Shown here: positions 12,229 through 25,173 of the stretch, in pieces
Layout of the letters: each line of letters starts with the position of its first letter
How positions within the stretch are numbered: position 1 is the first letter of the stretch
Origin: Promethearchaeota archaeon
GTDB taxonomy: Archaea; Asgardarchaeota; Hermodarchaeia; Hermodarchaeales; Hermodarchaeaceae
Assembly: GCA_048938385.1 (NCBI GenBank)
Contig: JBHLMG010000003.1
Coordinates: forward strand, 1-64,000
Direction: 5' to 3'
DNA length: 64,000 bases
The notes under the pieces: generated by a model
What the model was told of the DNA's origin: nothing
What the model saw: only the letters and a program-made list of their open reading frames with translations
Databases searched by the model: none
Program-made: the position numbers and the translations under genes

Positions 12229-13692
12229 ATGCCAATGTCTCCAAACCCCGAAATCCGTGAAGCAACTCCAATCCAGTTCGATAGTCGTCAATACCAGGAA
12301 CATATCCTCAAACGCATCCAAGAAAACCAAGATCACAACATATTGGTTGAACTGGATTGTGGTTTGGGTAAGCGAGTTCTTACCTACAAACTCGTCGCTG
12401 AAACTTTCCCTAACACGCGCTTCGTCATCACTGTGAACTCCTCTTCCTCTCTTCAAGAAACGGCACAATACCTCGAAAAAGAATACGGCGGAGTCAAAGG
12501 GCTCGGAGTTCTTTCACCTCATGTTCGGGGACCTCGAAGGCTTCAAATGCTTAAAGAATCTCGCGTCATCCTTTGCACTGCACGCGTACTAGCCAACATC
12601 CTCAGAAAGGGTGTGGTAGTTCCTGAGACCTTTGAAGGGTTAATGATCAATGAGGTCGACACAATCCTCCGTCGTGTCGGACATAACCAGGTGCTCATTC
12701 AACCCTGGAGCTTCTTACTTGACTTTTTTAAGAACCATTGGATCATCGGACTCAGTGGTACTCTCCGTGATGACCATGTAGTTTTCGATAATGCGCAAAT
12801 TCACCTCCGCGAGGAGCTTCAAACACTTGCGGGCTTTCTGAAAAATGTTGAACTCATTACTATGGACGAACTCAAGGGCACAGACCTCAAAGACTATATT
12901 AAACCAACAGTTCTTGATGTCGTTCCAGTCCAAGACCCTGTAATTCGTGCCACTGCGATGGTTCTCGACGATCTCATTCAATCGACTAGGGAAGAAATCT
13001 ACCAAGTGCTCCAAGATGAGGGACAAGAACCGGGTAGCGCCATTCCTCAAACTACTCGACTGCTCCACTTGATGCTACACGAATTGCCCATTCCTGAAGA
13101 CCTCGCTGTACGGTATAGTGGCTTGCTCATGATTCGTAAATACCTATATGGTATGTCTGCTTCGAGTTTTCGCCGATACCTCTATCACCCTATTCTGACG
13201 CCTAAAATTGATACGCAGCGGATATTGCAAGACTGGCCCAAAATTACTCCTAAGGTTCAGGAGGTCGTCAACCTTACTAAGAAAGCTAACAAAACCGTCA
13301 TCCTCTCCTCCTACTTGCATGTGGTAAGTGAAATCAATGAACTTCTCACCCAGCAGGGCGTACAAACCTTCAAATTGACCGGTCGAGTCAAAGACAAACA
13401 ATCCGTCCTCGTAGAATTCAAACATGCCAAAGCTCCAGCAGCCATTATTCTTTCCCCTGTGGGTGAGCGCGATCTCGATTTACCCAGCGCTGATTTACTT
13501 ATCATCTGTGACACCATTAACACGACCAAGACAATCTATCAAAAGATGAAACGCAGTCGTGGTGGGCGCGTCGTGTTCCTCTTTTATGCAAATACCTCTG
13601 AAGTCGGAAAACTTCGTCGCCTCATTGATAACATCATGAAGCGATACCCTTGGTCAACCCAGCTAAGAAATGTGAGTGACCTACACGCCTAG
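12229..13692 (+). CDS. Hef/FANCM-like SF2 helicase with degenerate motifs
   Basis: Q-motif RQYQ, LDCGLGKR (motif I), INEVD (II), GLSGT (III), SPVGERDLDLP (V), YQKMKRSRG (VI). Confidence 0.75.
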   Translation: MPMSPNPEIREATPIQFDSRQYQEHILKRIQENQDHNILVELDCGLGKRVLTYKLVAETFPNTRFVITVNSSSSLQETAQYLEKEYGGVKGLGVLSPHVRGPRRLQMLKESRVILCTARVLANILRKGVVVPETFEGLMINEVDTILRRVGHNQVLIQPWSFLLDFFKNHWIIGLSGTLRDDHVVFDNAQIHLREELQTLAGFLKNVELITMDELKGTDLKDYIKPTVLDVVPVQDPVIRATAMVLDDLIQSTREEIYQVLQDEGQEPGSAIPQTTRLLHLMLHELPIPEDLAVRYSGLLMIRKYLYGMSASSFRRYLYHPILTPKIDTQRILQDWPKITPKVQEVVNLTKKANKTVILSSYLHVVSEINELLTQQGVQTFKLTGRVKDKQSVLVEFKHAKAPAAIILSPVGERDLDLPSADLLIICDTINTTKTIYQKMKRSRGGRVVFLFYANTSEVGKLRRLIDNIMKRYPWSTQLRNVSDLHA

Positions 13693-14550: not shown

Positions 14551-15162
14551 ATGGTGGCCCACAAACCTTGTCATGGAGGCGAAACATCTGCGGAGTTTCC
14601 AGTGTACCCGGTCTATGTCTATGAGCGAACCTGTAGGGCAATATTCGACTTTTGTCTGAAGGAAGCTATAGGTGCATCGCCACGCGAAGCTTTAGGAGTA
14701 ATCCTTGGGTTTCGTTGTGTCTGGCAGGGAACCAAATACATCCGTGTAACTGATTGGGCTACAGGACGAGTAGAGGCTAGCTTAGCACATGCTCGATTTA
14801 CTCCCGAAGGTATTCTCGAATACCGTCTTGCTATGCACGATCGTTATGGCACGAATCCGCATTCTCCCAGGGTAGTGGGCCTATGGCATTCGCACCCTTT
14901 TGGTAGCGACCCCCACTTTTCATCAATCGATCTACGAACCTTCTTCAACACTCCCTTCTGTGCTGAAGGAAATGTGTTCTTCCTTATTGATCCCAAAAGC
15001 CACATTTTCAAAGTGTATATGCTTCGACCTCGGCTTGATGAACCTGGATTACAACTGGAACAAGTTGACTGGTGTACCTACAAACCTTCCGTACCGACTA
15101 ATGATACTCCATTCGCAGAAGAACTCGCTACACCTCCTGAGGAGGAAAACACTGATGGCTAA
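14551..15162 (+). CDS. JAB/MPN+ (JAMM) metallo-isopeptidase
   Basis: REALGVILG catalytic Glu; VVGLWHSHPFGSDPHFSSID JAMM motif; LIDP. Confidence 0.9.
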   Translation: MVAHKPCHGGETSAEFPVYPVYVYERTCRAIFDFCLKEAIGASPREALGVILGFRCVWQGTKYIRVTDWATGRVEASLAHARFTPEGILEYRLAMHDRYGTNPHSPRVVGLWHSHPFGSDPHFSSIDLRTFFNTPFCAEGNVFFLIDPKSHIFKVYMLRPRLDEPGLQLEQVDWCTYKPSVPTNDTPFAEELATPPEEENTDG

Positions 15163-16021
15163 GGATTCTCCCACACCCATTGAGATTGATTTTTTTGAAC
15201 GGGACCAACATGATCGCACTCGTAGGTGGCTTGGAGCTACTAATTTGGATACGATTCGTCACTCCTCTGTCCTCATGGTAGGGGCTGGTGCGGTCGGCAA
15301 TGAGGTGTGTAAAAATCTCGGGTTATTAGGAATCGGAAAAATAGTCTTAGTAGATCCAGATAAGGTCGCAGCTTCGAACCTAAATCGCTGTGTTTTTTTT
15401 CGCTCAGGTGACCATGATGTGAAATTCAAAGTCGACGCTATCACAGAACGCCTACCAGAACTTGCTACAAGTACCGTGATCGAACCCCACCCTGTACCTA
15501 TTCAACAAGCACCCGATTCGGTCTGGAACACAGACCTCGTACTCGTTGGCGTTGACAACCATTATGCCCGGTTCTTGTTAAACGCAAAGAACCTAGGCTT
15601 AACTTCACCTCGGCCTATCATCAACGGCGCTATGGGCAGAGACTTCGTATCTGTTGAAGTACTTGCCCCTCCGCACACTGCCTGTTTGGTGTGTTCGTGG
15701 AGCAAGGATTTCTTAGATGGAGTGGTTGCTAACGAAGTTCGAACACGGTGTGATCCTTTCTTCGTTGATACCGTACCCCGTTTTCCCATGATCAGCTTCA
15801 TCACCTCTGTCGTTGGAGCCATTATGGCTTGGGAAGCGACTCGTATCCTCGTAGGGCTCGAACAATGGCAGAAAACCAGACAATGGCAAGAGGATTTAGA
15901 ACCCTCCCTGGGGCGTTTCATTCAATACAACTTGCAGCATCACGAGACGACGACTGGACCTATTCTGCCAAACCCTCAGTGCAGTGAAACCTTCTGTCGT
16001 AATAAACGCAAACGCACCTAG
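15155..16021 (+). CDS. E1-like (ThiF/UBA) ubiquitin-like-protein activating enzyme
   Basis: GAGAVGNEVCKNL, DPDKVAASNLNR, VDN..AR, Zn ligands CLVC and CSETFC, candidate catalytic Cys in RTRC. ATG at 15155 follows GGAGG; the ORF-track start 14900 overlaps JAB and is unlikely. Confidence 0.92.
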   Translation: MAKDSPTPIEIDFFERDQHDRTRRWLGATNLDTIRHSSVLMVGAGAVGNEVCKNLGLLGIGKIVLVDPDKVAASNLNRCVFFRSGDHDVKFKVDAITERLPELATSTVIEPHPVPIQQAPDSVWNTDLVLVGVDNHYARFLLNAKNLGLTSPRPIINGAMGRDFVSVEVLAPPHTACLVCSWSKDFLDGVVANEVRTRCDPFFVDTVPRFPMISFITSVVGAIMAWEATRILVGLEQWQKTRQWQEDLEPSLGRFIQYNLQHHETTTGPILPNPQCSETFCRNKRKRT

Positions 16022-16024
16022 CCC

Positions 16025-16897
16025 TTACGATGTCTGGATGCTGACGACTTGAGTAACCTTCCAAGTTGAACTAAGGTGAGGGGCAGCTGTGTTGGGCGGT
16101 TGCCTCCAGGTGACCTTGAACTCTTGATGAGACCGAATATCCATCCAATTCCCAATAATAATGGGAATGTGACGGTTAGTGGCTCCCAACCAGCCCACAG
16201 ATCCAAACCATGTTGGGTCCACGGGAATCCAATGGTTGCGGATCCAGACCTCACTCCAGCCATGGCGCTCCCAATGTTTCTTTGTTGAGGCAAAGCCAGA
16301 GATTAGTCGGGCGGGAATTCCTCTGGCACGGCATAACGCGGCAAACAATGCGGCATACTCTGTACAGTCGCCAACCTGATTTTCAATTGCAAATGCTGCT
16401 CCTCGCTCATGTTGTTGAGGTACATAGCGAAGTGTCTTTGTGACTGTACGCATCGCAGCTTTGACGAAGGAAACTATCTCTGTGTGGTTTTTTGCAATAT
16501 CACGGGCTAAATCTTTGATTAGATGGTGATGGGATTCGATGAAAAATTCAGGTTTCGTATACGACTGAAGCTGGCTTGGAATGGTGGGGTTTTGAACAGA
16601 CGGGGGTAGTTGGTATTGGACTGACCGATTTCGAACCAGAGCTGTGTACCCACAGCTAAAAGTCTCAAGTCCTGCTAGTTGGTGGCAAGTAAAATCCAAC
16701 CAGTGATTCCCTCTCAAATCCGTAACTTGTCGCCCAATGACGGGTTGAGGTTTAATATCAACGAGGTGTTGGTAAGGCGGAAAAGGTGGCGGGAAGGCCA
16801 GAAAGATTCGAACATTCGTTAAAGGGTTTATAGACGAATTAGCAATATTGGTTTGATAGGATACACGGTGCGCAAGTATAGCTGAGTCTGCAGTCAT
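16025..16897 (-). CDS. Transglutaminase-like (Cys-His-Asp) protein
   Basis: GDCTEYAALFAALCRARGIPAR, HGWSEVW, WIPVDPTW. Confidence 0.92.
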   Translation of the reverse strand: MTADSAILAHRVSYQTNIANSSINPLTNVRIFLAFPPPFPPYQHLVDIKPQPVIGRQVTDLRGNHWLDFTCHQLAGLETFSCGYTALVRNRSVQYQLPPSVQNPTIPSQLQSYTKPEFFIESHHHLIKDLARDIAKNHTEIVSFVKAAMRTVTKTLRYVPQQHERGAAFAIENQVGDCTEYAALFAALCRARGIPARLISGFASTKKHWERHGWSEVWIRNHWIPVDPTWFGSVGWLGATNRHIPIIIGNWMDIRSHQEFKVTWRQPPNTAAPHLSSTWKVTQVVSIQTS

Positions 16898-17280
16898 GAT
16901 TCCTGCCCTTTAACCTCGTTTTGCTCCCCCTTGCGTTTGGTATCATCATCGAGGAACACGACTCTCCCACCAGGTGAATGTGATGAGCGTCGCTGAACAT
17001 CACCAAGAAGAATTACCTTAGATCGTTCGCTGGAATCAGGTTCTACTACATCGCGCTGTAATCCGAGAAAGCGAGTGAAGTGAGGTGGATGGGCTTCGAC
17101 CCCTCGTACTATCGTTCCTGGACAAGTACCTGTTCCTGTTTCTAAGAACAGAGCACGACACGAGGGACACATGTAACTACCACAGGTCGTACAAATCCAC
17201 CACTGACTCCGAGCCTCCTCCAGCGACACATGAGCATCACAAGCCACACACTTCATGTGCGAAGCACCATGGACACTCAT
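16894..17280 (-). CDS. RING-like zinc-finger protein with disordered tail (putative E3)
   Basis: CVAC-x15-CTTC-x4-CPSC-x11-CP-x9-H; ATGA overlaps on both sides. Confidence 0.7.
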   Translation of the reverse strand: MSVHGASHMKCVACDAHVSLEEARSQWWICTTCGSYMCPSCRALFLETGTGTCPGTIVRGVEAHPPHFTRFLGLQRDVVEPDSSERSKVILLGDVQRRSSHSPGGRVVFLDDDTKRKGEQNEVKGQES

Positions 17281-17504
17281 TCTTTAGCTCCCTCCTTTAG
17301 TTTGCGTTGATGAACTCGATGAATGTTCACTTCGAAATTAGGAGATAGATTTGGAGGACGCTGTTCTTGAAACGGAACATCTCGTTCCCCAAGAATCACA
17401 ATTCGGTCCTGTACATCCTCTTCAGGAGTTGATGAAGGTTTTCGCTTTTTTTCTTTCAGTGAAGGGTCGCTATTCGGAGTGGGTGGATCTGACAAATGCA
17501 CCAC
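17277..17504 (-). CDS. Small disordered protein with SIM-like motif (or read-through extension of the E2)
   Basis: Exactly fills the gap between E2 and the RING gene; contains RIVILGE; possible TTG start at 17495 after AGGTGG. Confidence 0.55.
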   Translation of the reverse strand: MVHLSDPPTPNSDPSLKEKKRKPSSTPEEDVQDRIVILGERDVPFQEQRPPNLSPNFEVNIHRVHQRKLKEGAKE

Positions 17505-18257
17505 CTACGAGTCATTATCATCGGTATCCAGTATTCGAACCTTCCTCTCATGTGAGGTATCACCAAGAATCCGTGGAGGTCGGCTTCCTGCTTGTCGCGA
17601 AGGAGGTATTCCTTCAAGAATTTTAATTCGCCGTTCGGGGACAGAGCGAGTGCCTTGGATTTGATGGCGTTCCTCCCATAATCGATCCAATGTAGTAACG
17701 ATGTTCTCAGCATCCGCCTCATACCACGCCATCGCTGTGGTGTTAAGTCCGTGGTCTGATTGAAACTGGGAGGGTGGTTCAACGCGATCGGGTTTTAACA
17801 AGACGAAGAACGGCAAGTCTTCAAGAATTCGATCTAGTTCACCACGAACTGAATAGCAGGCTGGTCCTGTGCCACTAGAGGATAACCGAGGGTGAAACAG
17901 GGGTGTTTCTGCAGTTGGGTGAATCATCCCAATGCTTTGCGGATATTCGCGGGGCAGGTCAAAGACAAACCGGTGTTCATACCGCAAAGCTCGATTACTG
18001 GTCAGTTGACTAGGTTTTTGAGTATATCCAGGGAGGTTTCGCATAGTAAATCCCACCCGTTTGAAAGCTCCATCTCGGTACCGGGAGAGGATGGTCACAG
18101 TGAAGTCATCATTACTCCAAGTAGTATCCTCACGGCGTGGAGGGCTAGGCATCCACCCACGGCGTCCATAGAAGTTATTTATGGAGTCAAAAAAAGTTTG
18201 AATCTGAGTTTCCACTCGCGCATTAAATAATTCCGGTGAGAACACAGGCCGGGTCAT
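17505..18257 (-). CDS. E2/UBC-fold ubiquitin-like-protein conjugating enzyme
   Basis: FVFDLPREYP, TPLFHPR (HPN equivalent), catalytic Cys in GTGPAC, LDRILEDL, GLNTTAMAWY (PLN.EAA..Y equivalent). Confidence 0.8.
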   Translation of the reverse strand: MTRPVFSPELFNARVETQIQTFFDSINNFYGRRGWMPSPPRREDTTWSNDDFTVTILSRYRDGAFKRVGFTMRNLPGYTQKPSQLTSNRALRYEHRFVFDLPREYPQSIGMIHPTAETPLFHPRLSSSGTGPACYSVRGELDRILEDLPFFVLLKPDRVEPPSQFQSDHGLNTTAMAWYEADAENIVTTLDRLWEERHQIQGTRSVPERRIKILEGIPPSRQAGSRPPRILGDTSHERKVRILDTDDNDS

Positions 18258-18305
18258 TGTTCGATTCCTCCTTGGAATGGATGGAAGTTGCTGATGGTGC
18301 TGTTA

Positions 18306-18623
18306 TCATCCGACTTCAGGCACCACATCCAAAAGGAACAGCTCATCATCCGTTACCTTGGGGTCGAGTTCACCAAAGGCAATTCCGGGGCTTAACCGTG
18401 TTGGCTCCGGGGCTTTACGAATCAAAACAAACTCAGGACGCTGGTTCCCAATTTTTGTTTCAGCCCATTTATCAATATTCACACCTTCATCACGGGCTTG
18501 GGTGACCAGGGTACGGATGACTTCTTCAACACGAGTATCTTCGTCAATGCCAATCCGAAATTCCTTTTGGCGGGGCTCAACATCCACGATGATTGAGCGC
18601 CAAAAACCTTCTTCATTACTCAT
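18306..18623 (-). CDS. Ubiquitin-like (beta-grasp) modifier ending in VG
   Basis: 105 aa with a strand-strand-helix pattern (IIVDV / FRIGI / TRVEEVIRTL), FVLIR, final strand LFLLDV then PEVG-stop; first gene of the E2 operon; RBS AGGTGA. Confidence 0.75.
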   Translation of the reverse strand: MSNEEGFWRSIIVDVEPRQKEFRIGIDEDTRVEEVIRTLVTQARDEGVNIDKWAETKIGNQRPEFVLIRKAPEPTRLSPGIAFGELDPKVTDDELFLLDVVPEVG

Positions 18624-18657
18624 GACAAGTCACCTACAAGGTGGGAAGTGCATCACC

Positions 18658-18780
18658 CACTTTAACTTTTCTCGAAGCGGAACCATTCTCTTCTCTCCGT
18701 TTAACGAGAAGTCCTTTAGGTCGGAATAAAAACTCGCATATTTGGCGCCTAATCCTTCCTGAATAGTGAAAGTTTAAGTG
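18658..18780. promoter_or_regulatory. Divergent BRE/TATA-like promoters for the Ubl-E2 operon and the SMC operon
   Basis: Minus-strand GAAAAGTTAAAGTG (18671-18658) and plus-strand GAAAGTTTAAGTG (18768-18780) are near-identical. Confidence 0.5.
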
Positions 18781-18847
18781 TCACGGGCTAGTGGGACCTA
18801 TTGAATCAAGTAGTAATCGAATCAAGCGCGGGAGATTAGTCAGCACT

Positions 18848-21748
18848 ATGACCACTAGGCAGGAGACACCTCTCTCACCTCAATCACTCGTTTTTCGTCG
18901 TATCCGCCTAGTGAACTTTGTCATTCACCGTGACACCACCATCCAACTAGACGCTTCCCCAGTTGTACTAATTACTGGAGCAAACGGAAGCGGTAAGACT
19001 CTGATCCTCGACGCTCTCCTCTTTGCCATCGGCGTCGATTCCCGTCGCGCCCAAAAACAACGAAACTCCGCCTTCATTGGCCGCTTCAACAAACACGCAG
19101 AAGTTCAGCTCGACCTAAACAACTTCGTTCTAAACGGACGACGCGTGTTTCATAGCCCTGATAAAGCAATAGCTAAACTGCTGAACCAAGATATTGTAAC
19201 AATTCGCTTACGTATCCACGCCAATAACCGAATAACTTACTGGGTAAACGAGAAGCGAACATTGAATGGGCGACTGATTACCCGCAAAGACATTCAAAAG
19301 CTCTTTCAGTCTGCTGGACTTTTTGGAGATTCACCCCTAGCTGTAACTGAGGCTGAAACACTTGATCATTTTGCCTCTCAATCACCTCGACGGAAGTTTG
19401 AAACTCTTTTAAACGAAACAGGTTTGCGGAACTGGATGGAGAAACTGGAGGAAGCACGACTCCTCGTGCTCCAAGCCAAAGCGAATGTCAAACCCCTTCA
19501 ATATCGGATCCGCCACGAAGAACAGCGACTTGAAGTACTTAAAACCGCCTATGAGGCATTCCAACAAAAACAGCAGCTTTTACACAGACTTACTGAACTC
19601 GATGTGGAAGCCGCTTGGGCTGAAGTCACCTATCGCGAACAACTAGCCCATGAACTCCAAACCCAAGTCAACGGACTCACTAGCCAACTTAACCGTGAGC
19701 AAATGCAACTAGCAAAGCAAGACGACCGACGAGCACAGCTTATCTCAAAATTCGAAGATATGGAACATCGAAAAGTTAAGCTCCAAACCACAATGGAATC
19801 CCTGCGAGATCAACAAATGCAAGCACAGGGTCATCGTGTAGGTCTCGAAAATGAAGTTGAGGTGGTGAAATCCCAACTTAAACGCTACACCCGAGCCAAA
19901 GAGCGGAAACCCCCACGGTCAAAGGAAGCAACCTTCCAAGGCGAACTTGATGGCTTTCTCTCCGACCGAGATCGGTTGGATGATCAATTAGCAGTTATCC
20001 GACAAGATATTACTGCAACTGAAGAACTACTCTTTGCTAAACCGCAAAGGTATCCACGCTTTGAAGAAACCATCCTGCGAGCTTGTCAACAATTCCGAAA
20101 AGAATTAGATAATCTTGCCCTCGATGAAGTCGTTATTGGTCCACTCTTCACGCTCATCCGAATGAGGCAAGGCTCTGAGCAGCATGAAACTGCCGTGAAA
20201 CTAGCTCTAGGACGGTATACCTACGCTTTTATCGCGCTCAATCGCGACGCGTTTGGCGAAGCCAAATCCCTCTTTGATCGGTTGTGGCCCCATGACAAAC
20301 CAGACCTTGTTGTTGCTCGTACCAATCCCACCACGACTATCGCCCGCGATCGCCCACCTGTAGCACCCCCAGTTTTTGGTTGGGTGGGAGATCTCATCGA
20401 AGGTGATGTCTATGCAGTTAGCTTTCTGAGCCGAGTTGTCAATACAGCCGTAGCTGAGGAGTCAGCAGATGCTAACGAATTGGTGGATGCTGCCCAGCAA
20501 TTGAAGGGAAACATCATCACTAGTGACGGTCGAAGTTATTACCTACGCATTGGAGCCTTTGCACGACCTCCCCGTCCAGTTACTGTTAGTCTATCCATTC
20601 CTCTCCGAGAGCTAGGACTTTTACAGGATGTGGCTGACACCAGAGGACAACTCCGAAATCTCCGTGAAGAAGAGGCTCGGTTAATGCAGGATCGAATGCG
20701 CATTAACGCCGAAATTAGTCAATTGCGTATACAACTGCAAGAGCTTCGCCAAAGCTCCGCTACCCTTTCAGAAGAGGAACAGACCTCTATTGTCACCGAT
20801 TTAGAAAACCGTGCTCAAAATTTACACCAACAGATACTTGAACTGGACACCCAATGTGACACCCTTGGTCAGGACTACCAAGATTGCAATACTGAGCTCT
20901 CGCCGATAAACTCACAGCTTCAAAAACTCGACAGTCAACTCTATAACCTTGACCAACAAAGATTGCGACGAACAGGAGAAATTGAACGCCTCAACGAAGA
21001 AATCCGACGACGCGAGGATGAATACGAACATCTCACGATCCAAGTGAAAGAATTTCGTAACACTGCAAAAACCCTAGGACCTCAACCTTCAATGGTTCGA
21101 TCACCCCCTGCTATACGCGACGAGCAAATACAATTACAAGCCATGATTGAAACAATTTCGGCTACGGCGACAGACCATCAAGCCTTCCAAGAACAAGAAC
21201 AAGTGGTCCAACAACTCTATCAATATCTTAAGGACCGTCAGCTCCACTTGGAGAATCTAATGACCGATGTCGACCGACGGTTAACCCGGTGGCGAGAGGA
21301 ACTCGAAACCACAATTACGACCCTAAACCACCGGATGAACCAACTCCTAAGCCATTTCCTCAAACAGGTTAAATTGATTGTGCGGTACCCTGACGAACCT
21401 AGTCGTGCTGAACTCCACCTCCAACTCGCCATCAATCGAAAGGGCCAATGGCGAACTTATCAAGAAATGTCTGGTGGAGAAAGGGTTCTTGCTACTCAAA
21501 CATTCATTCTTGCTCTCCATACGCTAGCGAAGAGTCCCTTGCATGTGATAGATGAATTCACTCAGCGCCTCGATGAAGCCAGTCGTGCAGCGGTGTTGAG
21601 CATTGTACAACGAACACTTGGCTTGACTAAGACGGATGCTCACATCTATCCTCAGTTTCTGTTGATGGCTCCTTCCACAGTAGGTCTTCAAATCCCTGAA
21701 GCTATGCACCATGTCATCCTTCTCAAAGGGCAGGTGAAAACATCATGA
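18848..21748 (+). CDS. SMC5/6-like ATPase
   Basis: IRLVNFVIH, Walker A GANGSGKT, two long coiled coils flanking hinge VIGPLFTLI..ALG..AFI, signature MSGGE, Walker B VIDEFTQRLD, QFLLMAP (Pro at the H-switch as in SMC5/6). Confidence 0.9.
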   Translation: MTTRQETPLSPQSLVFRRIRLVNFVIHRDTTIQLDASPVVLITGANGSGKTLILDALLFAIGVDSRRAQKQRNSAFIGRFNKHAEVQLDLNNFVLNGRRVFHSPDKAIAKLLNQDIVTIRLRIHANNRITYWVNEKRTLNGRLITRKDIQKLFQSAGLFGDSPLAVTEAETLDHFASQSPRRKFETLLNETGLRNWMEKLEEARLLVLQAKANVKPLQYRIRHEEQRLEVLKTAYEAFQQKQQLLHRLTELDVEAAWAEVTYREQLAHELQTQVNGLTSQLNREQMQLAKQDDRRAQLISKFEDMEHRKVKLQTTMESLRDQQMQAQGHRVGLENEVEVVKSQLKRYTRAKERKPPRSKEATFQGELDGFLSDRDRLDDQLAVIRQDITATEELLFAKPQRYPRFEETILRACQQFRKELDNLALDEVVIGPLFTLIRMRQGSEQHETAVKLALGRYTYAFIALNRDAFGEAKSLFDRLWPHDKPDLVVARTNPTTTIARDRPPVAPPVFGWVGDLIEGDVYAVSFLSRVVNTAVAEESADANELVDAAQQLKGNIITSDGRSYYLRIGAFARPPRPVTVSLSIPLRELGLLQDVADTRGQLRNLREEEARLMQDRMRINAEISQLRIQLQELRQSSATLSEEEQTSIVTDLENRAQNLHQQILELDTQCDTLGQDYQDCNTELSPINSQLQKLDSQLYNLDQQRLRRTGEIERLNEEIRRREDEYEHLTIQVKEFRNTAKTLGPQPSMVRSPPAIRDEQIQLQAMIETISATATDHQAFQEQEQVVQQLYQYLKDRQLHLENLMTDVDRRLTRWREELETTITTLNHRMNQLLSHFLKQVKLIVRYPDEPSRAELHLQLAINRKGQWRTYQEMSGGERVLATQTFILALHTLAKSPLHVIDEFTQRLDEASRAAVLSIVQRTLGLTKTDAHIYPQFLLMAPSTVGLQIPEAMHHVILLKGQVKTS

Positions 21749-22542
21749 ACACGAATGATACTTCTACTCACCTGCGCAGTTTACCACGAAGGAAACCTTG
21801 GCGAAAATCATTCCATCAAAATTACAAGAGGTACCGGTTAACCTTCTACGGTACCAAGAACCTCATCATCACTCTTTGGAACCTGACGAAGAAATATGAG
21901 GGTGCCCTCAAACACCAAGAAGTAGTTCCCATCAAAGAAGCTGAAATAGACCGGGAAGAAGTAACTGAATCCTATAAAATCGTAGAGACACCCTGGGAAC
22001 GTGATCTCGATGGACGGTTCTATCATCACCTCGCCACTATGCAACACCGAAGGGATTCAAATCTTGCCATACCAGAAATTTCTCCTCATGAATGGATATA
22101 CTACTTTGCTAATGAAGTCAAACGACGCGCGACCCCCCTTTTGTATTTGGTCAGCCCTGAAAAAGCAGTACCACCCTTTGGACTTCCGCCCGAAGATGCT
22201 CCCGTCGCATTAGCTAACCCTCCCACACCGACTGACCAACAAGCCATGCAGAAACTCAAGATACCCTACGAAGAGTTATCCTATGATTCATTAGAACTCT
22301 ACCGTAACGCGCTGATTCAACGGTTGCAAGGCAAACGCATCAACTATTTTGATTTAGCCAATCATCTAACGAATTGGGAATTAGATCTGTTAAGTCAAAT
22401 GATAAGAGATAACACCATCAATGCAACCTTCGGAAAATCAGCGATTCAGTTTCACAAATCTTCACGGAATATAACTAGAAATCCAGAATTCGTCGCTGTC
22501 GCAATAGCTGCCCGAAACTATGAGGAGGTCTCGACTCAGTGA
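21745..22542 (+). CDS. Putative kleisin (Nse4/ScpA-like)
   Basis: ATGA-coupled to SMC; helical N-region, Pro-rich linker, C-terminal RINYFDL..LLSQMIRDNTI resembling the kleisin C-terminal winged helix. Confidence 0.55.
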   Translation: MNTNDTSTHLRSLPRRKPWRKSFHQNYKRYRLTFYGTKNLIITLWNLTKKYEGALKHQEVVPIKEAEIDREEVTESYKIVETPWERDLDGRFYHHLATMQHRRDSNLAIPEISPHEWIYYFANEVKRRATPLLYLVSPEKAVPPFGLPPEDAPVALANPPTPTDQQAMQKLKIPYEELSYDSLELYRNALIQRLQGKRINYFDLANHLTNWELDLLSQMIRDNTINATFGKSAIQFHKSSRNITRNPEFVAVAIAARNYEEVSTQ

Positions 22543-23183
22543 CAACAGACCCTGTCAAGCCCACCAACTCAGTAACCCCTCCTGAGACCCCAGATGAAGA
22601 AGAGGAACCAGAAGAACGCCATCTTCTCGGCCAACTGTTCGCTGCCCTTACTGCGCGGTACCGCAACGATGATGGGCAATTGAATATTGGTATTAAGCGC
22701 CAGGATTTACTTGAAGCACTTCACATTAACAAAACTGGGCTTGATCGCCTATTGGATCTCCTTCGACAGCAAATTATCCCTCTTGGGCTAGAACTGGTGG
22801 AATACCGGCTTGGTCGAGACACGCTTTATTGTATTCGTACAATATATGGGGTTCCTGGCGAACTCTCAGATCCTGAATACGCCGTTTTGGGTGTTATTAT
22901 TGCCAAAATTGAACAAGCGGGTCAAGGACGAAGGATACGCCGTATAGCCACTAAGGCACTTGAAACGGTACTCGTTTCCCGAGGTCGGCTTTCACGCTAT
23001 CAACTCGATCGAATTTTACGCCGGCTTCTGGAACTCGGATATATCTCTCGAAGTGCACGACGCATCGAATATGGTCCACGACTTGAACTGGAATTTGATC
23101 CTGAACGTAGAGAAGCAATTGCTAACGCCGCCACTATATACCTTGCGGGGGCAACATCAGCTACCGAGGATGATACGCGATGA
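22539..23183 (+). CDS. KITE-family tandem winged-helix protein (Nse1/Nse3-MAGE/ScpB-like)
   Basis: IKRQDLL..LRQQIIPLGLELVE (WH-A); LDRILRRLLELGYI..YGPRLELEF (WH-B; compare MAGE WGPRA..E). Confidence 0.72.
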   Translation: MTTDPVKPTNSVTPPETPDEEEEPEERHLLGQLFAALTARYRNDDGQLNIGIKRQDLLEALHINKTGLDRLLDLLRQQIIPLGLELVEYRLGRDTLYCIRTIYGVPGELSDPEYAVLGVIIAKIEQAGQGRRIRRIATKALETVLVSRGRLSRYQLDRILRRLLELGYISRSARRIEYGPRLELEFDPERREAIANAATIYLAGATSATEDDTR

Positions 23184-23638
23184 AGCTTGATCTGTCCACC
23201 GTAGGGATATCCTGCGTCGCTTGTGGAAAGCGCACCACGCTTGAACAGGCCATTCAGAGCGGGTGGCATCAATGTCTTCGCTGCCAGTTCTTCATTGATC
23301 CACAATGCCTCCACATAGTTCAAGATACCATGGGGGGCATTTGTCCCTCCTTCAGCCAAGGTGTGACCCGCCATGGCTTACAACGTGCAGACATTCCCTC
23401 TGAACAGATTCTCATCTTCGTTAAAGACCAATACCAAAAAGGACGAATTGGTGCCCTGATTGATTCATTGTTCTATACCAAACCCACTCCTCTGTTACCT
23501 CCACAACATGACGAGCCAAGTGCAACGATAACTGAAGAACCTCTAACGCGGGAAGAAATCTGGCGAAGGTATGGCCTCGTTTTAGTCCGGCGGACGCAAG
23601 GTAAGTGGGTGGCTTGGGAAAAGGTTGGCGTAACCTAA
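23180..23638 (+). CDS. RING-like zinc-finger protein (Nse1-RING-like spacing), paralog of 16894-17280
   Basis: CVAC-x16-CLRC-x4-DPQC-x11-CP-x8-H; ATGA-coupled to the KITE gene. Confidence 0.7.
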   Translation: MKLDLSTVGISCVACGKRTTLEQAIQSGWHQCLRCQFFIDPQCLHIVQDTMGGICPSFSQGVTRHGLQRADIPSEQILIFVKDQYQKGRIGALIDSLFYTKPTPLLPPQHDEPSATITEEPLTREEIWRRYGLVLVRRTQGKWVAWEKVGVT

Positions 23639-24066: not shown

Positions 24067-25035
24067 TCATTCAAGGTCGAGTTCTTGGACAATTTTTTCT
24101 ACAAGGATTGCTGCACTTTTCTTTGTTCCCGCTGATTCTGTTATTACTTCCTCTTCTGTGTCTTCAGGCAAAGGTGGTAATCCTGCTAATGTACGCACTA
24201 TCCCCGAAATAGCGTGGCGTGCTACAATGACTTCTGAACCTCCTGATAGTAGAACGATTAACCGCCCTTCGCAAACCTCCTCTGCAGTAGTCAGTAAGAT
24301 CTCTGTCATTGCTGGAAACGCATTCAGAGATAATTGAAACCCTCCGTAGTCGAGGGCATGAGCATCATGACCCATATTCCATAAAATCACTTGGGCTTGA
24401 TTCTTCTTCGCAAGGGGGGGAACTAATCGCTTAAGGGCGTCAACAAAAGAAGCGTCGCTACAGTTACCAGGAAAAGGCACATCCACATGTCGAGCTGAAA
24501 TGACATCGATTTCCTCATAATAACTTGCCTCGAAGTTCAGATGGTACACTCCCTCATCGTCACCGAGAATATCACGGGTTCCATCTCCCGGATGAGGATC
24601 CGTATCCACGATGAAGAAACGCTCTACCTTGAATTTTTGCTGTAAATTCCGAACTAACAGGGCTGAATTATTGTAATAACAAAAGCCCCAGAAAGAATCC
24701 CGGCTGGCGTGGTGTCCCGCACATCCAGTGAATACAAAGGCGTTTCGAGCTTCACCTTTCCAAACAGCTTCACCCGCTCGAACCGCCGCTCCGGCTGATA
24801 CCACTGATGCAAGGTGATATCCTGATTTTTTTACCAATTGAATATGCTGTGGGGTGTGAACTTGCGACAACAGCGTATCAGCTACCGTGGGCGCCTCTTC
24901 TACCATTACTCCTGGTGAATCTAAGGTCCCAGTCGCTTGTAAATACTCGAAGGCAGGTTTTACACGACCTGCAAGGACGGGATATCCTTCAGCAGACATT
25001 AGTCGATGATACAGCACAAGTGTTCTACCTTGCAT
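24067..25035 (-). CDS. Histone deacetylase-family amidohydrolase
   Basis: GHHA, GFCYYNN, DTDPHPGDGT, GHDAH..D, LSGGS. Start set at MQGRTL. Confidence 0.88.
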   Translation of the reverse strand: MQGRTLVLYHRLMSAEGYPVLAGRVKPAFEYLQATGTLDSPGVMVEEAPTVADTLLSQVHTPQHIQLVKKSGYHLASVVSAGAAVRAGEAVWKGEARNAFVFTGCAGHHASRDSFWGFCYYNNSALLVRNLQQKFKVERFFIVDTDPHPGDGTRDILGDDEGVYHLNFEASYYEEIDVISARHVDVPFPGNCSDASFVDALKRLVPPLAKKNQAQVILWNMGHDAHALDYGGFQLSLNAFPAMTEILLTTAEEVCEGRLIVLLSGGSEVIVARHAISGIVRTLAGLPPLPEDTEEEVITESAGTKKSAAILVEKIVQELDLE

Positions 25036-25173
25036 CCAATCACAACAAGACTCTACTATTACGGGCTTAGGATTAATACAATTGCATTTGTTTGTTTCCA
25101 ATTTTTCTCGCTGAATTGGATGTTTCCTCCCTCTCTATGACTGCCCTTAACCTATTAATGGACGAAGTAAGCG

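Follow-up and report, generated by a model that had tools for sequence, protein, structure and literature searches.

Positions 14551–23638 of the window (the whole 64-kb stretch of DNA that was analysed) hold eleven open reading frames (ORFs) arranged in three tightly packed units, with the order and strands of the ORFs checked on the sequence. One unit is an SMC operon whose ATPase appears to be closest to SMC6, and the other two encode a divergent set of predicted ubiquitin-like conjugation components, namely, a modifier (Ubl), an activating enzyme (E1), a conjugating enzyme (E2), and a JAB protease. The linkage of the SMC operon to the Ubl genes is kept in other Asgard lineages, and this conserved genetic coupling is the main finding of the present study. 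The original prediction listed eleven contiguous genes in this order and on these strands and took the host for a probable Asgard archaeon; all the ORFs are indeed present, and the host is a Hermodarchaeote, its nearest records bearing the name Hermodarchaeota. The features of the locus are as follows.

14551–15162, plus strand: JAB/JAMM metalloprotease (Pfam Prok-JAB).
15155–16021, plus strand: E1-like adenylating enzyme of the ThiF/MoeB type, 288 aa (Pfam ThiF).
16025–16897, minus strand: transglutaminase-core (papain-like Cys-His-Asp) enzyme, short form, 290 aa (Pfam Transglut_core).
16894–17280, minus strand: ZnF-A, RING-like zinc finger, predicted paralogue of ZnF-B (ligand alignment, weak Pfam matches).
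17277–17504, minus strand: small conserved protein, 75 aa (conservation, position after the E2).
17505–18257, minus strand: E2-like conjugating enzyme, predicted UBC-type core and a tail (motifs, profiles, Atlas features).
18306–18623, minus strand: predicted ubiquitin-like modifier (Ubl), 105 aa, ending in V-G (C-terminus, Atlas features).
18624–18847, no strand: divergent control region, 224 bp (two inverted AAAGTTWAAG boxes).
18848–21748, plus strand: SMC ATPase, 966 aa, SMC6-like (Pfam SMC_N, family profile against PDB).
21745–22542, plus strand: kleisin candidate, 265 aa (position, size, conservation).
22539–23183, plus strand: KITE subunit (tandem winged helix), Nse1/Nse3-like (AlphaFold model, Foldseek, VIA-align).
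23180–23638, plus strand: ZnF-B, RING-like zinc finger, fourth gene of the SMC operon (ligand pattern, profile and fold matches).

Adjacent genes overlap by 8 nt (JAB/E1) or by 4 nt (transglutaminase/ZnF-A, ZnF-A/small protein, SMC/kleisin, kleisin/KITE, and KITE/ZnF-B), the genes for the small protein and the E2 abut, and 48 nt separate the E2 from the Ubl. The SMC gene had been predicted to start at 18791; the homologues, which are 966 aa long, move the start to 18848, giving a spacer of 224 bp between the divergent units. The spacer contains AAAGTTWAAG at 18660–18669 on the minus strand and at 18769–18778 on the plus strand, one copy ahead of each divergent operon. These are the only two occurrences in the whole 64-kb window (0.43 expected; at least two in eight out of 100 shuffles), and both boxes are kept across the Hermodarchaeota loci. 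The boxes may be BRE/TATA-like promoter elements, and the presence of inverted conserved 10-mers ahead of both operons suggests common control of the two.

The SMC ATPase is recognized by Pfam (SMC_N, 88 bits) and contains the motifs GxNGSGKT (Walker A), LSGGE (signature), and IDE (Walker B), all of them invariant in 11 family members. The profile of these 11 members, compared with the PDB, matches human SMC6 with E 2.9e-40 and yeast Smc6 with E 2.5e-37, the alignment to Smc6 running end to end (positions 9–933); the next matches are Pyrococcus Smc (1.6e-28), SMC4 (8e-27), and SMC2 and SMC3 (about 1e-18). By profile match, not by a tree, the family appears to be nearer to SMC5/6 than to condensin, cohesin, or prokaryotic SMCs. 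A separate canonical SMC of 1192 aa, the genome's one other true SMC, is encoded on another contig.

The AlphaFold model of the KITE subunit has pLDDT 82. According to Foldseek, its first match is MAGE-G1/Nse3 (8e-5), followed by ScpB, Nse1 (2e-4), and JetB, and nearly all significant matches are KITEs. VIA-align gives the best score to Nse1 (7dg2_A, Z 10.9 over 159 residues), by a small margin over ScpB (9.6), with JetB at 9.4; some family members also have weak Pfam matches to SMC_Nse1, MksE, and ScpB. A KITE fold of the Nse1/Nse3 type is thereby confirmed at the level of the model. With SMC6 as the best PDB profile match of the ATPase and Nse1 as the structure to which the KITE model aligns best, the relationship to SMC5/6 that had been proposed for the operon is supported.

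Between the SMC and KITE genes there always lies a gene whose product has N- and C-terminal blocks conserved in seven families. No usable match to it was found in the PDB profile search, in the Pfam scan of 15 family members, or in the Atlas search, and, as the family and fold searches gave no match, its identity as a kleisin is taken from its position. Co-prediction of the kleisin candidate with two copies of the KITE and ZnF-B gave no answer, the score not being specific relative to one control, and is used neither way.

Eukaryotic SMC5/6 consists of Smc5–Smc6, the Nse4 kleisin, the KITEs Nse1 and Nse3, with a RING ubiquitin ligase in Nse1, the SP-RING SUMO ligase Nse2 on the Smc5 arm, and the Nse5/6 loader. 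The archaeal operon is similar to it in having an SMC nearest to SMC6, a KITE nearest to Nse1/Nse3, a RING-like finger that accompanies the KITE, and a tie to ubiquitin-family conjugation. It differs in several respects. There are one SMC gene and one KITE gene, that is, no counterparts of the Smc5–Smc6 and Nse1–Nse3 heterodimers, and, given the single SMC gene, a homodimer is expected; the RING-like domain is a separate protein and is not fused to the KITE; no genes for Nse2, Nse5, or Nse6 were found in the locus; and the locus itself encodes the modifier and its E1, E2, and protease, which are highly divergent, with the E2 and Ubl unrecognized by Pfam, apart from a weak match of the Ubl to YukD. 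A single SMC with a single KITE is the state expected before duplication, yet it is not the eukaryotic complex.

The two zinc-finger proteins, ZnF-A from the Ubl unit and ZnF-B from the SMC operon, share the pattern C-x2-C/H-x16-C-x2-C-x4-C/D-x2-C-x11-C-P-x8-H and align at all eight ligand columns, and tblastn with ZnF-A as the query reaches the ZnF-B genes of other loci, down to E 2e-10. Judged from these alignments, ZnF-A and ZnF-B are paralogues, in agreement with the original prediction. In 20 sequences the conserved ligands are C12, C/H15, C32, C35, C/D40, C43, C55 (followed by P56), and H65; they have the spacing of a cross-brace and, in the PDB profile alignment, match the ligands of the cellulose synthase RING one by one, the last ligand excepted.

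The PDB profile matches of ZnF-B are RINGs: CesA (cellulose synthase, 0.014), then TRIM21, NOT4, RNF4, and TRAF6. In the ZnF-B model the N-terminal domain (residues 11–80) has pLDDT of about 87–95. VIA-align against 48,000 PDB representatives yields, among the top 50, almost exclusively RING, U-box, SP-RING, and ZZ domains (Z 3.5–5.1), including the Nse2 SP-RING (2yu4, Z 4.4), 7qcd_C (Z 4.3), and the Nse1 RING, with which the likeness is one of fold class only (Z 3.5). Foldseek with the same model found nothing in the PDB at E < 0.001, and the Atlas rows fall into RING and ZZ clusters with TM < 0.5. ZnF-A has weak Pfam matches to zf-UDP (a RING finger) and IBR, and PF14569 is precomputed for several orthologues. 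Taken together, these matches support a RING-like fold class for both fingers, short of proof that they are members of the RING family.

Outside the finger, ZnF-B has an additional conserved C-terminal module, R-E-E-x-W...G-K-F-x-x-W, and the tail of ZnF-A has [RK]-[IV]-x-[IVF]-L motifs, which recur in the tail of the E2 and in the small protein and are kept between Hermodarchaeota and Heimdallarchaeota. The zinc-finger family is rare (71 representatives among 1.8 billion), and a word-indexed homologue search with its alignment returned close Hermodarchaeota relatives only. The same domain is also found at the C-terminus of unannotated proteins of 250–360 aa (P0273, P0274, P0276, P0278; P0283, P0286), some of them with helical N-terminal regions and two with a SWIM-like cysteine motif. 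These longer proteins were considered as KITE–RING fusions and rejected: they contain no KITE, Pfam finds nothing in them, and hhalign against the KITE profile gives a probability of 0.04. The genomic context of one of them was read and is unrelated to SMC.

The JAB protein matches Pfam Prok-JAB (E 6e-8, 33 bits with a cut-off of 25) as well as PADLOC JAB models, and the HSH...SSID motif is present. Its gene is kept beside that of the E1 in all the loci read that carry the Ubl module, and it is likely the enzyme that processes the Ubl and removes it from its targets. The E1 matches Pfam ThiF (E 8e-34, 117 bits) and, below their cut-offs, the NCBIfam ThiF/MoeB/SAMP-E1 models.

In the E2, LPREYP...H122-P-R...C134 is invariant in 10 orthologues. 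The top PDB matches of its profile are all ubiquitin-conjugating enzymes, aligned at the FPxxYP...HPN...C active site (E 0.02), where it aligns with UBE2K and UBE2N, and its language-model features in the Atlas fall into UQ_con clusters at 0.92; these profile matches and features support a fold of the UBC type. In the tail of the protein, the motif R-[IV]-x-I-[LI] occurs up to three times. The Ubl (mean column identity 68%) has an invariant C-terminal V-G, followed in some orthologues by 0–2 further residues, and an invariant V-G with such short tails is the signature of a processed modifier. The Atlas features of the Ubl point to ubiquitin-fold domains at 0.90–0.91. All this supports the assignment of the Ubl as a small beta-grasp modifier with an exposed C-terminal glycine, encoded beside its own E1 and E2. 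As far as the sequence can tell, no member of the Ubl cascade (E1, E2, Ubl, JAB) is missing from the locus, as had been claimed.

The small protein, which has no Pfam family match, is always encoded directly after the E2 in the loci read. It has an acidic N-terminus followed by an I-x-I-L-x-E-R-D...P-P-N-x-S-P motif, in which I35, I37, E40, P50, P51, N52, and P55 are invariant between Hermodarchaeota and Heimdallarchaeota.

A separate canonical pair, a UQ_con E2 and a ThiF E1, is encoded elsewhere in the same genome, and the cascade linked to the SMC is therefore a dedicated one. The canonical pair is located on contig C1 (L070:9555–11110), 4.5 kb downstream of a HerA–Mre11–Rad50 operon. A link between this pair and the SMC-like ATPase of that operon was considered and judged to be due to chance, given the 4.5 kb and the unrelated genes between them.

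We searched 400 Asgard genomes and read 70 loci, covering seven of the eight SMC-bearing families at the locus level. The SMC family is present in 65 of the 400 genomes (eight families) and the E2 in 32 (four families), and all E2-positive genomes, save one fragmentary assembly, have this SMC too. Co-location in relatives had been named beforehand as the decisive point, and the linkage is kept: in 22 out of the 32 E2-positive genomes the E2 and SMC genes are on one contig, within 8 kb of each other, and three gene orders are seen; in two further genomes the contig ends inside the operon, and the halves match. The four genes SMC–kleisin–KITE–ZnF-B make up a core that does not vary among the seven families read, ZnF-B being present wherever a locus with this SMC family was read; four of the seven families have the Ubl module attached to this core, in differing gene orders.

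Every Hermodarchaeota contig that is long enough shows the same eleven genes arranged as in the window, with divergent units. Heimdallarchaeota have one colinear nine-gene operon, SMC–kleisin–KITE–ZnF-B–JAB–E1–Ubl–E2–small protein, with gaps of 14–180 nt between those genes that were called on the contig; about 6.5 kb downstream of the operon, a weaker ZnF-A-like gene is found beside the transglutaminase. In Asgardarchaeum abyssi, JAB–E1 follows ZnF-B (SMC..ZnF-B–JAB–E1), and Ubl–E2–transglutaminase is located on a different contig. Among bacteria, Planctomycetota and a few others have JAB–E1–Ubl–E2 or Ubl–E2 alone; for the Ubl–E2 pairs of Planctomycetota, no conserved partners were found beyond JAB and E1, and no zinc-finger neighbour. 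One Planctomycetota contig (L068:3687–10552) carries the full eight-gene string SMC–kleisin–KITE–ZnF-B–JAB–E1–Ubl–E2. The contig is truly bacterial, judging by holA, FolC, and even GC content (PknB-like kinases are also near), and the string implies inter-domain transfer of the whole module.

These arrangements bear on the question of whether the two modules are coupled at all. They could be two unrelated operons, one for a second SMC complex and the other for a Ubl or sulfur-carrier system, lying side by side by shared ancestry, as each module is found alone somewhere (SMC–ZnF-B in families f6–f8, the Ubl module in Planctomycetota), and much of the synteny comes from related, non-independent genomes. 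However, the adjacency outlasts three gene orders in lineages that share only about 30% identity in their SMCs, the colinear operon of Heimdallarchaeota is tight, the whole string has moved between domains, and the E2 and JAB protease speak against a sulfur carrier. We consider the absence of coupling very improbable and disfavour it, and chance is not a tenable explanation for the adjacency of the two modules. Modules that are each found alone and are yet joined in three arrangements, and that travel together between domains, are best seen as functionally coupled.

The gene of the transglutaminase (Pfam Transglut_core, E 9e-23, 81 bits) directly follows the E2 in Asgardarchaeum and in family f11, and ZnF-A in Hermodarchaeota and Heimdallarchaeota. 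The protein encoded in the window is a natural short form of about 290 aa, many relatives having about 534 aa. Close Hermodarchaeota relatives have either the short form (about 290 aa, as at 16025–16897 of the window) or the long one (about 534 aa, L018:7420–9024), the latter with extra N- and C-terminal regions. In a family that has the SMC–ZnF-B core and no Ubl module, a transglutaminase homologue lies 6–8 kb from the operon in convergent orientation (L004:16194–17798, L005:1169–2779, L022:892–2493, L023:14767–16371). A hidden Ubl module between ZnF-B and the transglutaminase of family f7 was ruled out, the genes there being a transporter and a sulfatase.

Within lineages the system behaves as a core one. 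The E2 is present in 18 out of 18 other genomes of the Hermodarchaeota family and in 10 out of 12 genomes of the Heimdallarchaeota family, and the Hermodarchaeota flanks are constant wherever the locus is long enough: genes for a HAD hydrolase and an SF2 helicase border it at one end, and an HDAC-family gene borders it at the opposite end. In the window, the SF2 helicase (ResIII/Helicase_C, weakly XPB-like) is at 12229–13692 on the plus strand and the HDAC-family deacetylase at 24067–25101 on the minus strand; both may be functionally related to the system or may reflect lineage synteny only. The neighbours, that is, the HAD hydrolase, the helicase, the HDAC-family protein, and a TPR protein, do not make up a defence island. 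No nuclease, toxin, or other effector (JetD, LmuA) was found at the locus. PADLOC recognizes only the E1 and JAB, with weak and generic matches, and a generic ATPase head; none of its models matches the E2, Ubl, kleisin, KITE, or zinc fingers.

These observations have to be set against a role in immunity to plasmids or viruses, in which SMC–kleisin–KITE would sense foreign DNA in the manner of Wadjet or Lamassu and the Ubl cascade would tag invader or host proteins in the manner of Bil. Human SMC5/6 restricts episomal DNA, and the archaeal SMC has LmuB as its best PADLOC match (E 6e-27, 93 bits) and also matches the mad3 and JetC models; SMC6, at 141 bits, scores higher. The JAB and E1 match, weakly, models of the CBASS Cap2/Cap3 type and BilD. 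The distribution of the SMC and E2 across Asgard is patchy, a planctomycete has acquired the entire module in one piece, and defence systems built on SMCs and on Ubls are both well known (PMC10586767). Family-level patchiness and inter-domain transfer thus keep a defence role alive, whereas the fixed context, the lack of a toxin or nuclease, and the limited recognition by PADLOC favour a housekeeping role similar to that of SMC5/6. The defence framing of the original prediction is weakened by the fixed Hermodarchaeota context, although the known SMC- and Ubl-based defence systems still speak for it; immunity seems to us an unlikely explanation, if one to be reckoned with.

Comparison with individual defence systems leads to the same picture. 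Like Wadjet (JetABCD) and Lamassu (LmuABC), the locus encodes a coiled-coil ABC ATPase and, presumably, a kleisin, and, like Wadjet, also a KITE. In contrast to them, it has neither JetD nor LmuA, its SMC resembles SMC6 more than it does LmuB or JetC, and its associated activity is predicted to be Ubl conjugation and not that of a nuclease; Lamassu has no KITE. The combination of an SMC-like ATPase with a dedicated effector, characteristic of Wadjet and Lamassu, is absent here. With Bil (BilABCD) and CBASS Cap2/Cap3 the locus has in common an E1, an E2, a JAB, and, for Bil, a Ubl in the operon, and Ubl–E2 pairs related to the present ones occur in Planctomycetota. It differs from them in the E2 and Ubl that PADLOC does not match, in the E1 and E2 being separate proteins, in the absence of a CD-NTase, in the inheritance pattern of a core gene, and in the link to an SMC. 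Neither the family models nor a defence-island distribution place it among systems of the Bil/CBASS type.

The reading we prefer is that of a two-module system working as one unit, a DNA-engaged SMC complex with its private Ubl cascade, and we give it about even credence. The first module would be a DNA-entrapping complex of the SMC5/6 type, presumably made up of an SMC homodimer, the kleisin, a KITE dimer, and ZnF-B as a dedicated subunit. The second would be a private, divergent cascade of the Ubl (ending in V-G), the ThiF-type E1, the UBC-type E2, the JAB, and the small motif-bearing protein as an adaptor, to which some lineages would add the second RING-like finger, ZnF-A, and a Cys protease with the transglutaminase fold. 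The Ubl would be adenylated by the E1 and passed to C134 of the E2. ZnF-B on the SMC complex and/or its free paralogue ZnF-A would bring the charged E2 (E2~Ubl) to the DNA-loaded complex, and SMC subunits or DNA-bound proteins would be modified where the complex is engaged. The mark could be reversed by the JAB, which would also mature the Ubl, and perhaps by the transglutaminase-fold enzyme as well. The E2, the small protein, and ZnF-A have tails with [RK]-[IV]-x-I-[LI] strands, which may be Ubl-binding motifs similar to SUMO-interacting motifs (SIM-like). The system likely serves to maintain the genome in the way SMC5/6 does (repair, replication stress, DNA topology, or control of extrachromosomal DNA), as a vertically inherited core function.

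Several points weigh against the two-module reading. The observations cover the genes present, the families of their products, and the conserved genetic linkage, and from these we infer every biochemical step and the cellular role. Accordingly, of the SMC5/6-coupled Ubl ligation system that had been proposed, the genetic coupling stands, while DNA-triggered conjugation, the role of an E3, and the choice between an antecedent and an analogue belong to interpretation. The kleisin is an unverified, position-based candidate; the E2 has H-P-R where the canonical H-P-N is expected (Asn replaced by Arg); and the best PADLOC match of the SMC is the Lamassu protein LmuB, though it is weaker than the match to SMC6. 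The Ubl module occurs without any SMC in many Planctomycetota and thus can work independently. Finally, the SMC family is missing from most Asgard families and has moved between domains, so that an accessory system fits as well as a core one.

The zinc fingers deserve separate consideration, since their assignment to RINGs is based on low scores (Z of 5.1 at most, profile E of at least 0.014, and no Foldseek match at E < 0.001), and ZnF-B is retained in families f6, f7, and f8, which have no Ubl module, so that its primary role may be other than that of an E3. The modules could then be coupled without the fingers being ligases: ZnF-B would be a structural or DNA-binding subunit, the E2 would transfer the Ubl directly, and the SMC complex would be the regulated substrate. 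The planctomycete Ubl–E2 pairs without a zinc-finger neighbour are compatible with this arrangement, and bacterial Ubl-like systems, such as CBASS Cap2 and Bil, operate without an E3. It is at odds with the profile and fold matches, which are almost exclusively to E3-type RING, U-box, and SP-RING domains, with the conservation of the C-P pair, and with the location of ZnF-A inside the Ubl–E2 operon of Hermodarchaeota and of the weaker ZnF-A-like gene by the transglutaminase in Heimdallarchaeota. We consider coupled modules with fingers that have no E3 function rather improbable.

SMC5/6 is, to our knowledge, the least understood of the eukaryotic SMC complexes and the sole one with built-in ubiquitin and SUMO ligases, and the present locus bears on when and why these ligases joined it. 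The link between eukaryotic SMC5/6 and ubiquitin/SUMO may have archaeal roots. A stronger version, which we regard as doubtful at present, is that the adjacent KITE and ZnF-B represent the unfused precursor of Nse1 and the Ubl cascade the antecedent of ubiquitin/SUMO ligation by SMC5/6; modifier-ligase activity would then have arisen before eukaryogenesis in the Asgard SMC5/6 lineage and would not be a eukaryotic innovation. The question becomes testable with about ten small recombinant proteins, and, if the reading is true, this would be the first prokaryotic SMC machine wired to protein conjugation.

SMC5/6-related SMC–kleisin–kite operons have been described in TACK and Asgard archaea (van Hooff et al., 2025 preprint, bioRxiv 10.1101/2024.01.07.573240). 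The order SMC–kleisin–KITE, the lineages, and the presence of a second SMC complex beside the canonical one are the same as here. That study has an SMC5/6-related clade and a third, Asgard-only clade, and the present SMC family may belong to either. The same authors consider the Nse1 RING a eukaryotic innovation missing from archaeal kites, and list neither a zinc-finger subunit nor Ubl genes (van Hooff et al., bioRxiv 10.1101/2024.01.07.573240). In the loci studied here, by contrast, the gene after that of the KITE is always one for a RING-like protein, and four families have a Ubl cascade joined to the operon; the locus thus challenges the recent statement denying the Nse1 RING an archaeal counterpart.

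Ubiquitin operons of Caldiarchaeum subterraneum and Asgard encode ubiquitin, an E1, an E2, a small RING finger, and Rpn11 (PMC5654768, PMC6043591), and the present cascade likewise has its modifier, E1, E2, small RING-type finger, and JAMM protease encoded in an operon. Unlike their proteins, which Pfam recognizes (ubiquitin, UQ_con), it forms a separate divergent family, with V-G in place of G-G in the Ubl, H-P-R in the E2, and linkage to an SMC operon. No description of SMC–Ubl coupling was found in the searched literature (on Asgard ubiquitin, SMC-based immunity, and Hermodarchaeota), with the caveat that an earlier mention in Krishnan et al. (2020), on ABC ATPases, is not excluded. Unannotated families have been identified: none of the relatives found for the E2 and the RING-like finger carries an annotation, and neither the Ubl nor the small adaptor matches a curated family.

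None of the 94 relatives found for the E2 is annotated, and those with a taxon name are all from Asgard, except for one labelled Zixibacteria. The Ubl ORFs of Planctomycetota (L055, L057, L059, L060, L064, L065, L068) and of the Asgard locus L026 have about 150 aa, that is, about 50 residues more than the Asgard Ubl of about 100 aa; if the extra residues lie past the V-G, the longer Ubl would be a precursor needing cleavage. The distant Ubl–E2 pair at L026 (L026:9549–13469), which comes from another Asgard metagenome-assembled genome, is directly upstream of two BRCT-domain proteins, a possible second tie of this E2 family to the DNA-damage response.

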